From Thermoanaerobaculia bacterium (GTDB taxonomy: Bacteria; Acidobacteriota; Thermoanaerobaculia; Multivoradales; UBA5704), in assembly GCA_039918595.1 (NCBI GenBank), contig JBDSHF010000538.1:1641-65640 (forward strand): DNA of 64,000 nucleotides. Reading direction: 5' to 3'. The notes under the pieces are model-generated. The model had not been told where the DNA came from. It did not search any database and worked only from the letters and a program-made list of their open reading frames with translations. Position 1 is the stretch's first letter, and each line of letters starts with the position of its first letter. The position numbers were made by a program, and so were the translations under genes. Positions 23,386 to 26,300 of this stretch are shown in pieces.

Positions 23386-26300
23386 TCAGCTCTGTTGATC
23401 GCCCGCGCGTATGTGGCGCGGCTTCATGCTCATCAGCCGTCCGAGCCTCGATTGCTCGCTCTGCCTCTCGGTTCTCTCCTGCTCCTCCCGCTCGGCGGCG
23501 CTCAGCATGTTCAGACGGTCGATCTCTGTTTCTGGGGAAGCGACCGCTCCGGCGAGCACGGCCTCGAAACGGCTCTGCATGCGCTCGATGGTGGCGGGGT
23601 CGAACAGGTCGGTATTGAAGGTCCACTGGACCCCCAGGCCCTGGCGTGTCTCCCGCACCCACACGGTGAGGTCGAAACGCATGGTTTCGTCCTCCACGGC
23701 GAGCGTGGAGAGGCGGAGCTCCGGCAGCTCGATGTCCGCCTCGGGAGCGTTCTGCAGGCCGAAGGTCACCTGGAAGAGGGGCGAACGGTCCTGCTTCCGC
23801 TCGATACCCAGCGCCTCCACCAGCTTCTCCAGGGGGAGCTCCTGGTGGGCGAAGGCGCCCAGGGCCGCCTCGCGTGCCTGCCGCAGCAGCGCGCGGAAGG
23901 TCGGGCCCTGCGACAGGTCGAGGCGCAGCGGCAGGACATTGATAAAGAACCCGATCATCCCCTCGGTCTCATAGCGGTCGCGGCCGGCGATCGGCATGCC
24001 GACGACCACTTCTCCGCGGCCGGACAGGCGCCCGAGCAATACGGCGAACGCGGCGAGCAGGGTCATGAAGGTGGTAGCGCCCTCCTGCCGGCCCAGTTCC
24101 ACCACGGCCTGAGAGAGCTCTGCGGGGAGCAGGAACCGGCGCTGCCGGCCGCGGCCCGAGGGGTGCTCCGGACGCGGCCGGTCGGCCGGCAGCTCGAGCG
24201 TCTGGGGCTCGCCGCCCAGATGGCGGATCCAGTACTCAAGATGGGCATCGAGGACCTCGCCTTTCAGCCAGCTCCGCTGCCAGTAGGCGAAGTCCGCGTA
24301 CTGGACCGGCAGGTCCTTGAGCGGCGAAGGCCGCCCGGCCGAGAACGCCTCGTAAAGCACCCCTACCTCGCGCACCAGGACCGACATCGACCAAGCGTCG
24401 CTCACGATATGGTGGGTGCTGAACAGCAGCACGCTCTCGGCCCGCTCCAGGAGGAAGAGGGCGGTACGCAGCAGCGGCCCGCGTGCCAGGTCGAACGGCG
24501 TGAGGGCGTCCGCCTCGACGAGGCGCCGCGCCTCCAACTCGCGCGCCGGCTCGGCCAGGCCTCGCAGATCCACCACCGGCAGCGGGAGCGGTGTCCCGGA
24601 CGGCGGCGAGATCAGCTGCGCCGGCCGCCCTTCCTCGTCGGAGAAGGAGGTGCGGAGCGACTCGTGACGGCGCACGACTTCGTAAAAGGCGAGCGCGAGG
24701 GCGGCGATGTCCAGCTCGCCGGTGACCCTCACCGGCGCGGTGATGTTGTAGGAGACGTCCTCCGGCGCAAGTTGGGCGAGAAACCAGAGCCGCTGCTGGG
24801 CGAAGGAGAGCGGCAGCGGCCGGTCGCGCGGCACCGGATCGAGGGCCGGCGCCCGCAGGGTCGCGCCGAGGCCCGTCTCCTGCTCGATCCGTCGAGCCAG
24901 TTCGGCGACGCTCGGAGCCTCGAAGAGGGTCCGCAGCGAGACCTCCAGGCCGAGCACCGCGCGCAGGCGCGAAACCAGGCGGGAGGCGACCAGCGAGTTG
25001 CCGCCCAGATCGAGGAAGCTGTCCTCCGGGCGCAGGGAGTCGATCCCCAGCACCTCGCCGTACAGGCCGAGGAGGAGCTCCTCCATCTGCGACAGGCGCC
25101 TCTCCCCCTCGGCCGCCGGAGCGCCGCGGAGCGCGGTCCGGTCCACCCGGCCGCCGGCGATGCGCGGCGGATCGGCGAGGAGGCTGAACGAGCGGGGCAC
25201 CAAGTGAAGCGGCAGCAGCTCTTCCAGGAACGGCCGCAGTTCGGCCGCGGAGGGCGCTTCCGCGCTCTCGGACACGATCAGCGCGGTGAGCCTACCGCCC
25301 CCCTCCGCCAGCAAGACCACCGCCTCGCGGACGGCCGGGTGGCGCTCGAGCACCGCTTCCACCTCCCCCGGCCAGACCGGGCGGCCGTGTATCACGAGGC
25401 GCTCCCCCAAGGGGCCGAGGAGGTCGAGGCCCCCTGGAGACCGGCGGCGCGCCCAGATGCCGGTCGGCAAGAGCGCCAGCGCCGGGGACCATGGAGCGGC
25501 TGGGAGATCTGGCGCGGGCGCCGCCACCTCCAGGTGAATCTCGCCGGGGAGCCCCTCCGGAACCGGGAGGAGGTCCGCTCCGAGGACATGGAAGAAGGGC
25601 ACCTCGCCAGCCGGGCCGGCGGCTGCCAGCCCGTCCAAACCGCGGGCCAGCCGCCACGCCTCCAGATCGCGGATCAGCGCGGCCCGCCGGCCGGCCTCTC
25701 CGGGTCCATTTCCAATCGCCAGCAACTGCCGCACCTCGTCCTCGGCGAGCAACGGAAACGCCCCCACCGCAGCCGAGGGCTCGGCCACGAACGCTGCCAA
25801 CAGGTTGCGCAGGTGCTCCTGCATGCGGCGGACCGCCGTCGCTTCGAGGCGAGAGCCGTCGTAGGAGAAGTAGATCTGCAGCTCCGCCCCGGGGTTGACC
25901 ACGACATTGAGCGCATAGCGGGTGCGCACCAAGCTCTGCAAGTCGTGCGCCGCGATCCGAGCCGGTTCGGAACCTGCCGGAGCGGGGCGCGCCACTTCCG
26001 CGGCCGGCGTGCGCGGATAGTTCTCGAACACCAGCAGCGTCTCGAAGAGCGGGAGACCCATCGGCACCTCCGACCAGCTCTGCACGAAGGAGCCGTACTC
26101 GTGGGCCTGGCGCTCGAGGGCGCGCTGCTGCAACTCCTCCAGCCAGTTCAGGAGCGAGGCATCCCGCGGCACTTTCACCCGCAGAGGCACCGTGCTGATG
26201 AAGGGCCCGATCATGGTTTCCGCTCCGCGCAGGGCGGCCGGCCGCCCCGAGACCGTGACGCCGAAAAGCACGTCACTCTCGCCGCTGTAGCGGGAGAGGA

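Follow-up and report, generated by a model that had tools for sequence, protein, structure and literature searches.

A truncated adenylation domain in an internal module of a predicted lipopeptide synthetase from an uncultured Acidobacteriota bacterium

Several modules of nonribosomal peptide synthetases (NRPSs) are known to lack a working adenylation (A) domain of their own. In the glidonin synthetase, a remnant designated A* retains only the part of the domain called A_sub, and such domains have been described as rare apart from the A* of kutzneride biosynthesis (PMC10587159). The glidonin A* and its adjoining carrier (T) domain are structural, while the condensation (C) domain uses free putrescine (PMC10587159). 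The glidonin paper reports the A* of the kutzneride protein KtzH to be critical for the transfer of Glu mediated by KtzN (PMC10587159), and the oxygenases KtzO and KtzP hydroxylate Glu only when it is carrier bound (PMC11611013). CmnI, which is without an A domain, is charged by the in-line domain CmnA-A1 (PMC12400406), and a C-PCP (peptidyl carrier protein) module of the WS9326A system is served by trans A domains (PMC7539972). In the AMB pathway of Pseudomonas aeruginosa, carrier T2 of AmbE is loaded in trans by AmbB (PMC4357302); in a later model, T2 receives the chain by transthioesterification (PMC10880069). Here we describe module 9 of the NRPS encoded by nrpsC, which lies in a 64-kb window from a Thermoanaerobaculia bacterium. 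"The window" refers to this whole stretch of DNA, which makes up nearly all of its 66-kb (66,232 bp) contig. With moderate confidence, we read module 9 as a working elongation module in which a catalytically dead remnant is all that is left of the A domain; its carrier, T9, would be charged in trans, and its assembly line would make a 14-residue product.

The adenylation-domain remnant of module 9

Every gene of the window is encoded on the minus strand. As delineated from the list of open reading frames (ORFs), from phmmer comparisons with the window's own domains, and from Pfam, nrpsC (23386..45234) encodes a 7282-aa protein carrying modules 4 to 9 of 14. Its order is Q-A(MT)-T, where MT is a methyltransferase, followed by four C-A-T modules, the epimerization domain E8, C9-A*-T9, and a terminal C domain, C10. 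E8 (27184..28440; aa 5599-6017; HHLVVDG) follows a carrier, T8, with a GGDSI motif. Next comes C9 (25744..27051; aa 6062-6497), a DCL-type condensation domain with the N-terminal signature SPLQEGMLLW, whose best solved relatives are McyB-C1, PvdL C3, SrfA-C, and TycB. C10 (23482..24816; aa 6807-7251), at the C terminus of the protein, is LCL type, has the N-terminal signature SFAQQRLWF, and finds its best solved relatives in Txo1/Txo2, DhbF, and TycC6. Both retain HHxxxD, as the initial annotation of this locus had stated, in the form of MHHLVGDG in C9 (26635-26658) and THHIVSDA in C10. The carrier T9 (24895..25068; aa 6723-6780) had likewise been judged intact, and it is: it contains LDLGGNSL, with the codon of Ser6747 at 24994-24996.

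What lies between C9 and T9 is far shorter than an A domain. The domain mapping leaves a gap of ~225 aa, in which phmmer found an A_sub match at aa 6624-6695 and no A-core match. The stretch at 25114-25758 corresponds to aa 6493-6707; Pfam searches with these 215 aa and with a 286-aa superset returned AMP-binding_C only, at 23.8-24.2 bits against a cut-off of 24.5 bits, and no match to PF00501. Matches to NCBIfam models were restricted to the C-terminal ~115 aa of adenylate-forming enzymes. A hidden Markov model (HMM) of 524 positions, built on the nine A domains of the window that are intact, aligned aa 6547-6711 at positions 333-513 only, and in a multiple alignment the stretch from the C-A linker to just ahead of motif A6 is absent from A*. 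With Pfam, HMM, and alignment all finding no A core, the C-A*-T organization first proposed for module 9, with a dead A remnant, is upheld; no complete AMP-binding domain is present in this interval, and the short spacing stands.

Which parts of the domain survive? Directly after C9 is a variable, predicted disordered remnant of the C-A linker (25597..25743; aa 6498-6546; AlphaFold2 [AF2] confidence score pLDDT <50). A* itself (25102..25596; aa 6547-6711) consists of a core-strand relic with decayed A6 and A7 motifs (25399-25596) and an A_sub part with A8 to A10 (25102-25398). The relic of A6 reads GEIHLEV, its GGxGxxRGY part being gone, and that of A7 reads LPTGI, TGD having become TGI. At A8 (GPLGERLVIHGRPVWPGEVE), GRxDxQVKxRG has become GPLGERLVIHG, such that the GRxD hinge is now GPLG, and A9 reads LPLHLVP. 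The initial annotation had listed cores A1 to A6 as missing; A1 to A5 are indeed deleted, but the position of A6 is still recognizable in its decayed form. It was correct that the invariant Lys of A10 is replaced by Arg (GGRVDR; Arg6696, codon 25147-25149). Judged from these sequences, an ancient in-frame deletion took A1 to A5 and the substrate pocket from module 9, and A* is predicted to be catalytically dead, with the residues for adenylation and thioesterification gone.

An AF2 model of aa 6498-6800 places the first 48 residues in a disordered segment (pLDDT <50), followed by a folded beta-rich piece and A_sub-like domain (pLDDT 78-95) and a four-helix carrier (pLDDT ~90). Foldseek matched this model to the A-PCP portions of solved NRPSs, although the alignment behind the model consists of intact A-T sequences and biases it toward the canonical fold.

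Is the truncation a peculiarity of this assembly? In the module 9 region, locus L001, from a metagenome-assembled genome (MAG) of an uncultured Acidobacteriota bacterium, is 67-77% identical to the window. The arrangement A-T-E-C-A*-T-C, then a TauD-family oxygenase gene, then Q-A(MT)-T-C and a further Q-A unit is found in L001 and also in L018, whose nrpsD ortholog is annotated as coming from a Thermoanaerobaculia MAG. L019 and L020/L021 have the same gene neighborhood, and the A*-T9 regions of L019 and L020, read from translations, align; L009, a noisy long-read contig, has the same C9-to-T9 spacing as the window. More distant is L017 (representative P0190; GCA_035278895.1, DATEIO010000954.1), which is only ~42% identical and has a protein ending in E-C(DCL)-A*-T-C, followed by a TauD gene and Q-A(MT)-T-C. 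The relics have derived features in common, namely LLGPLG, I(H/R)GR, VPR(S/T), and DPPR. Among the MAGs with this cassette are MFD07386.bin.2.49 (654-kb contig CAWBWZ010000022.1), GCA_035458145.1, and GCA_035278895.1. Because independent assemblies have the same architecture, an assembly artifact is ruled out, and the L017 arrangement together with the common derived features indicates, at the level of sequence comparison, that the truncation is older than the divergence of these clusters.

Modules of this kind are infrequent, though not without parallel. Of 712 C-to-T modules in 150 large NRPS representatives, a biased sample, 3 had an A_sub match only, and a further 16 had no A match, among them that of P0190, whose relic falls below the detection threshold. 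An HMMER ranking of all representatives was swamped by summed multidomain scores, the informative entries being P0149 and P0190, the latter with one contiguous match spanning C-A*-T. When JGI metagenomes were scanned with aligned A*-T9 sequences, a single distant match, at 29% identity, and no orthologs came back. Three short database proteins with AMP-binding_C and PP-binding only (P0003, P0008, and P0018) were considered as A* cases and rejected; they are fragments of normal A domains and retain the Lys and GRxD.

A separate truncation came to light through homologs of the cluster's halogenase. These homologs (L011 to L016), 76-85% identical, belong to unrelated NRPS clusters and proved uninformative on the flanks of this one. 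In L016 (ENA ERZ28573650, CRIT18-1 scaffold_58), however, a different NRPS by the halogenase homolog ends in C-A*-T-TE, where TE is a thioesterase (L016:2202-4955). The truncation there is independent, with another boundary and a decayed A5 region kept; the A10 Lys is again changed to Arg (DGRVDP). In architecture, it resembles the glidonin termination module.

Constraint on module 9 was measured as the ratio of nonsynonymous to synonymous substitution rates (dN/dS) between the window and L001 by the Nei-Gojobori method. The domains flanking A*, at 0.21 for C9, 0.13-0.19 for T9, and 0.23 for C10, are constrained like working domains of the same protein (C7, 0.18; A7 core, 0.21; T7, 0.13; C8, 0.23). 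A* is relaxed yet not neutral. Its dN/dS is 0.52, with no indel over 165 codons, compared to 0.17 for the A6-A10 part of the intact A7; this value is under neutrality (Fisher P = 0.002), while the nonsynonymous rate is ~2-fold that of the flanks (P = 1e-7). The remnant is therefore retained though noncatalytic. The linker remnant, at 0.47, has large indels among orthologs. In an alignment of six sequences, including the window and the distant L017, the linker and decayed A6 region contain deletions of 20-40 aa, the A_sub part is nearly free of indels, and the PDLPAAPW stretch is gone in L019 and L017. The A10 position reads R/R/G/G/R/V across the six. T9 is highly conserved in the same alignment, with its Ser invariant and both HHxxxD motifs kept in all six.

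One further feature of T9 is its GGNS motif, which it shares with T2 (nrpsA aa 2737-2798, ~53258-53443), the usual form being GGHS or GGDS. They are the two carriers ahead of a C domain at the end of a protein, a TauD gene, and a pair of AmbE-like units. The Asn of T9 is kept in close orthologs and is His in L017.

Proposed charging of the module 9 carrier

What does a module without an A core do? In the mechanism that we favor, the A* remnant would be kept as a folded element joined to T9, either a spacer or an adaptor, and holo-T9 would be aminoacylated in trans by an A domain from outside module 9. C9 would then couple the D-configured peptide from T8 and E8 to the L-aminoacyl-T9, and C10 would hand the product to the Glu-derived residue of nrpsD, giving a product of 14 residues rather than 13. 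The line has 14 modules and 14 amino-acid carriers versus 13 amino-acid-activating A domains. The case for elongation is first of all stereochemical. Because C9 is of the DCL type and follows E8, while C10 is LCL, an L-residue would be added on T9; were T9 skipped or a mere relay, C10 would meet a D-terminus. On both sides of T9, the C domains have HHxxxD, are under purifying selection, and, as typed from sequence, match elongation in their stereochemistry. The DCL/LCL pattern, combined with the constraint on C9 and T9, argues for real elongation and hence for trans-aminoacylation of T9. The initial annotation had offered two fates for the module, loading in trans or skipping. The first appears likely, given the dN/dS values of 0.13-0.23, the conserved motifs, and the DCL/LCL pairing, and the second, like a pure relay function, appears unlikely.

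How would skipping or relay work? T9 would never be aminoacylated; the chain would pass from T8 to T9 by transthioesterification, or C10 would take it from T8, and the product would have 13 residues. Module 9 has no cognate A domain, and it belongs to a cluster of AmbE-like units; a review of the AMB reconstitution describes just such a transthioesterification, from T1 to T2, with no residue added (PMC10880069). The constraint on C9 and T9, however, is that of working domains, and catalytic motifs are conserved family-wide. C10 is LCL type though the chain from E8 ends in a D-residue, for which C9 is the DCL partner, and the arrangement has been maintained in L017 at ~42% identity. On this evidence, we consider it improbable that T9 is bypassed or only relays the chain.

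If T9 is charged in trans, as we favor, which A domain charges it? A search for A3 and MbtH motifs outside the NRPS ORFs of the window was empty, in keeping with the earlier statement that no stand-alone A domain or MbtH gene is visible there, and a 10-kb stretch upstream of L001's nrpsA ortholog contained no stand-alone A domain. Because the visible cluster is without a stand-alone A domain, an in-line loader seems most likely, and one can speculate that an A domain of the line acts a second time, by analogy with CmnA-A1 on CmnI and AmbB on AmbE-T2. The pocket codes bear on the possible substrate but are approximate, the Stachelhaus positions having been assigned by comparison with a fragment of GrsA. 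By this reading, A2 is Ser-like (DVWHVSLVD), A5 is Gly-like, A8 is aromatic (DGWTVAAIC), and the four MT-interrupted A domains have the Glu code DAKDLGVVD, as for AmbE. Upstream of A*, L017 has Ala-type modules rather than aromatic ones, and its downstream Q-A units are again of the Glu type. Glu would thus be the sole specificity beside A* in both cluster types, a weak hint that may reflect inheritance only.

In one alternative, module 9 is a KtzH-like beta-hydroxy-Glu module. T9 would receive Glu from a KtzN-like A domain elsewhere or from the A domain of nrpsD, the oxygenase encoded by ox2 would hydroxylate the Glu held on T9, and A* would dock the trans A domain. The gene for the A*-T-C protein has the TauD gene directly downstream, four A domains of the cluster have the Glu code, and the order A*-T-C, TauD, Q-A(Glu) is kept in L017 even though its upstream A domains differ (Ala versus aromatic). 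The kutzneride precedents agree with it as well, in that the A* of KtzH is reported to be crucial when KtzN transfers Glu (PMC10587159) and KtzO and KtzP act on carrier-bound Glu only (PMC11611013). The adjacency of the second TauD gene, which the initial annotation had pointed out, does not tie the oxygenase to T9. The order of T-C, TauD, and Q-A(MT) also occurs after module 2, whose Ser-type A domain is complete, and it matches that of ambB-ambC/D-ambE, a system in which Glu of the downstream unit is the substrate of the oxygenases (PMC10880069). Given these two facts, the adjacency can be explained without T9. The L017 synteny is perhaps merely inherited, and the window contains no KtzN-like gene. 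A beta-hydroxy-Glu module thus has a small chance of being correct, though a better one than any other alternative discussed here.

A more elaborate version would make A* a selected docking adaptor within a conserved cassette of E-C(DCL)-A*-T-C, TauD, and Q-A(Glu). The Glu-specific A domain of nrpsD would charge both its own carrier and T9, and a single TauD enzyme would act on three consecutive carrier-bound Glu residues. If true, the cassette would combine, in a lineage of uncultured Acidobacteriota, AmbE-like chemistry with a KtzH-like logic that involves no stand-alone A domain. We regard this as a long shot.

Could C9 instead join the chain to an amine or amino acid that is free rather than carrier tethered, with A*-T9 serving just to stabilize the protein? 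The glidonin C13-A*-T13-TE module operates in this manner (PMC10587159), and the independently truncated module of L016, another acidobacterial-type NRPS, ends in the same C-A*-T-TE. Module 9, in contrast, is internal and is followed by the intact LCL domain C10, by five more modules, and by the line's only TE. As release at C9 would orphan modules 10 to 14, we hold this to be very improbable.

Several points weigh against a working module 9 charged in trans. No loading partner for T9 was found within the 64-kb window of the 66-kb contig, including the stand-alone, KtzN-like A domain that the initial annotation had envisaged; such a domain is possible elsewhere in the genome. Nor does similarity point to a donor. 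Identity to T9 ranges over 29-47% among the remaining 13 T domains, and the nine tails of intact A domains are 37-43% identical to that of A*, with no donor indicated. A single pairwise comparison, in a genome with ~72% GC, underlies the dN/dS values, and the DCL/LCL argument depends on subtype classification by sequence. Finally, the glidonin A*-T pair is essential in vivo and yet, according to its authors, has a structural role only (PMC10587159); by that precedent, conservation of T9 is no strict proof that it is aminoacylated.

The surrounding gene cluster

The cluster is headed, in transcription order, by a gene for a flavin-dependent Trp-halogenase (61688-63367), beyond which the right flank has ~630 bp without a gene. 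Homologs of the halogenase and of the NRPSs assign the window's source to Acidobacteriota, with Thermoanaerobaculia-like relatives; exact matches to the TauD and halogenase sequences of the window were sought, and no record contained them. nrpsA (51749-61651) encodes FAAL-ACP-C-A-T-C-A-T-C, in which a fatty acyl-AMP ligase and an acyl carrier protein open the line, and it is followed by the TauD oxygenase gene ox1 (50700-51752) and by nrpsB (45234-50684; Q-A(MT)-T-C). nrpsC comes next, and then ox2 (22313..23362), which encodes a TauD/TfdA-family Fe(II)/2-oxoglutarate oxygenase (PF02668, E = 2e-48). Its start is probably the ATG at 23362; the mechanical ORF reaches 23662 and overlaps the end of nrpsC. 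The ox1 and ox2 products are 52% identical, with parallel N termini. nrpsD (16832..22279) encodes the AmbE-like module 10, Q-A-T-C, in which the A domain has the Glu code and an inserted FkbM methyltransferase and Q is a C-like domain without HHxxxD. nrpsE (2388-16835) encodes Q-A(MT)-T-C-A-T-C-A-T-C-A-T-TE and carries the sole TE of the line at its end. Directly downstream of this TE-containing NRPS lies a duplicated permease gene of the MacB_PCD/FtsX kind (1-2388), which continues past the window's left end. Such permeases are common in Acidobacteria, and this one could be an exporter or a self-resistance gene.

The beginning of the cluster differs in L001. Its first A-type domain in the nrpsA ortholog matches the window's A core only partially, and the 10 kb upstream of this ortholog contain no halogenase. 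A contig of the same MAG (contig_9593; L022:1-10000) has more C-A-T-C-A-T-C modules and a DUF3326 gene (7207-8517) immediately upstream of nrpsA. Judged by this differing start, the loading region varies within the cluster family.

Four AmbE-like units are present, at 45234-50684, ~39830-45234, 16832-22279, and ~11430-16835. In each, a Q domain devoid of HHxxxD is followed by an A domain that has the code DAKDLGVVD and is split by an FkbM-type methyltransferase (PF05050), then by a T domain and a C domain, and each unit is N-terminal in a protein whose predecessor ends in C. All four are ~50% identical to one another. Together they suggest, from their domain content, four modified Glu residues, methoxylated or AMB-like, in a single lipopeptide. 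There is one TauD gene per pair of units. As AMB formation involves two oxygenases per Glu, the Glu chemistry of this cluster is probably not identical to it. In L017, the second Q-A unit (L017:19608-22978) is Glu coded, is without the methyltransferase insertion, and opens a 9802-aa NRPS. We considered whether the second set, comprising module 9, its TauD gene, and two AmbE-like units, is a recent copy of the first. This was rejected because all the AmbE-like units are ~50% identical and C10 has a closer paralog than C3.

Other residues of the product can be guessed at. Module 8 has the aromatic-type pocket DGWTVAAIC and is followed by an E domain; with the Trp-halogenase gene at the head of the cluster, a halogenated D-Trp-like residue 8 is plausible from the gene content. 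Modules 12 and 13 of nrpsE (~5000-11400) are near-identical, with the common pocket code DMFNNGLTF, a pattern that points to a recent tandem module duplication.

Unrelated to module 9 is a set of Cas genes in another Thermoanaerobaculia MAG (JBJMHA010000044.1; L011:16765-19740). A gene with Pfam matches to Cas6 (weak), reverse transcriptase, and Cas1, then a Cas2 gene, lies a few kb from a halogenase/NRPS cluster.

Module 9 among known systems

Why does a single truncated domain matter? Prediction of the structure of this 14-module lipopeptide hinges on module 9, for instance in synthetic "bioinformatic natural product" work on uncultured soil bacteria. Addition of a residue 9 is supported, but its identity is unreadable from the gene, and a naive collinear prediction would therefore be wrong or incomplete at that position. 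The locus also offers a view of how a rare module type evolves. Here the A core was lost, and the carrier-side A_sub part has long been kept under weaker but real constraint, while the catalytic Lys drifts and the N-terminal rest erodes. This retention fits a need for A* either in folding, as in glidonin, or in recognition by a trans A domain, as in kutzneride, and the orthologs are natural variants with which to test that. No new kind of mechanism is revealed by module 9.

The analogies to KtzH and AmbE T2 drawn in the initial annotation agree with the literature (PMC4357302 and PMC10587159). As described for KtzH, module 9 is internal and has a truncated, nonfunctional A* retained between C and T with the carrier intact. 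The gene content is also reminiscent of the kutzneride system, with a TauD-family oxygenase gene nearby (KtzO/KtzP in kutzneride), Glu-activating A domains, and an O-methyltransferase-interrupted A domain. In contrast to kutzneride, the window shows no stand-alone A domain of the KtzN kind, the downstream AmbE-like Glu units account better for the TauD gene, and the host is an uncultured Acidobacteriota bacterium rather than an actinomycete.

The glidonin protein GdnB, with its C13-A*-T13-TE module, offers the same reduction of A* to the A_sub part, without A core or Stachelhaus pocket, and its A* and T are needed for protein integrity (PMC10587159). It differs in being terminal, with free putrescine releasing the chain, whereas module 9 is internal and feeds the LCL domain C10.

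The AMB pathway shares the AmbE-like Q-A(Glu, MT)-T-C units, which here too are preceded by a TauD gene and a protein ending in T-C, the order of ambB-ambC/D-ambE. Module 9 accordingly occupies an AmbB-like position, upstream of the TauD gene, and not the T2 position. AmbE T2 is also without an A domain, but C2 adjoins it directly with no A remnant between them, and AMB formation uses two oxygenases per Glu, compared to one TauD per pair of Glu units in this cluster.

In CmnI and VioI of capreomycin and viomycin biosynthesis, finally, an A-less module adds a residue after being charged by the in-line domains CmnA-A1 and VioA-A2, with no dedicated stand-alone A domain (PMC12400406). Module 9 and CmnI are alike in the absence of a working A domain of their own, and residue addition is presumed for module 9 on the basis of its sequence. 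CmnI is a separate protein with no A remnant, and an extended disordered region at the N terminus of its T domain has been proposed to contact the A domain (PMC12400406); in nrpsC, by comparison, C and T are separated by a folded A_sub remnant within a 7282-aa protein. By anatomy, then, KtzH appears to be the closest system, and by probable loading logic, CmnI and AmbE-T2. Seen against these analogies, module 9 is best regarded as a further case of a known phenomenon, alongside the A* domains of kutzneride KtzH and glidonin and the A-less CmnI and AmbE-T2.

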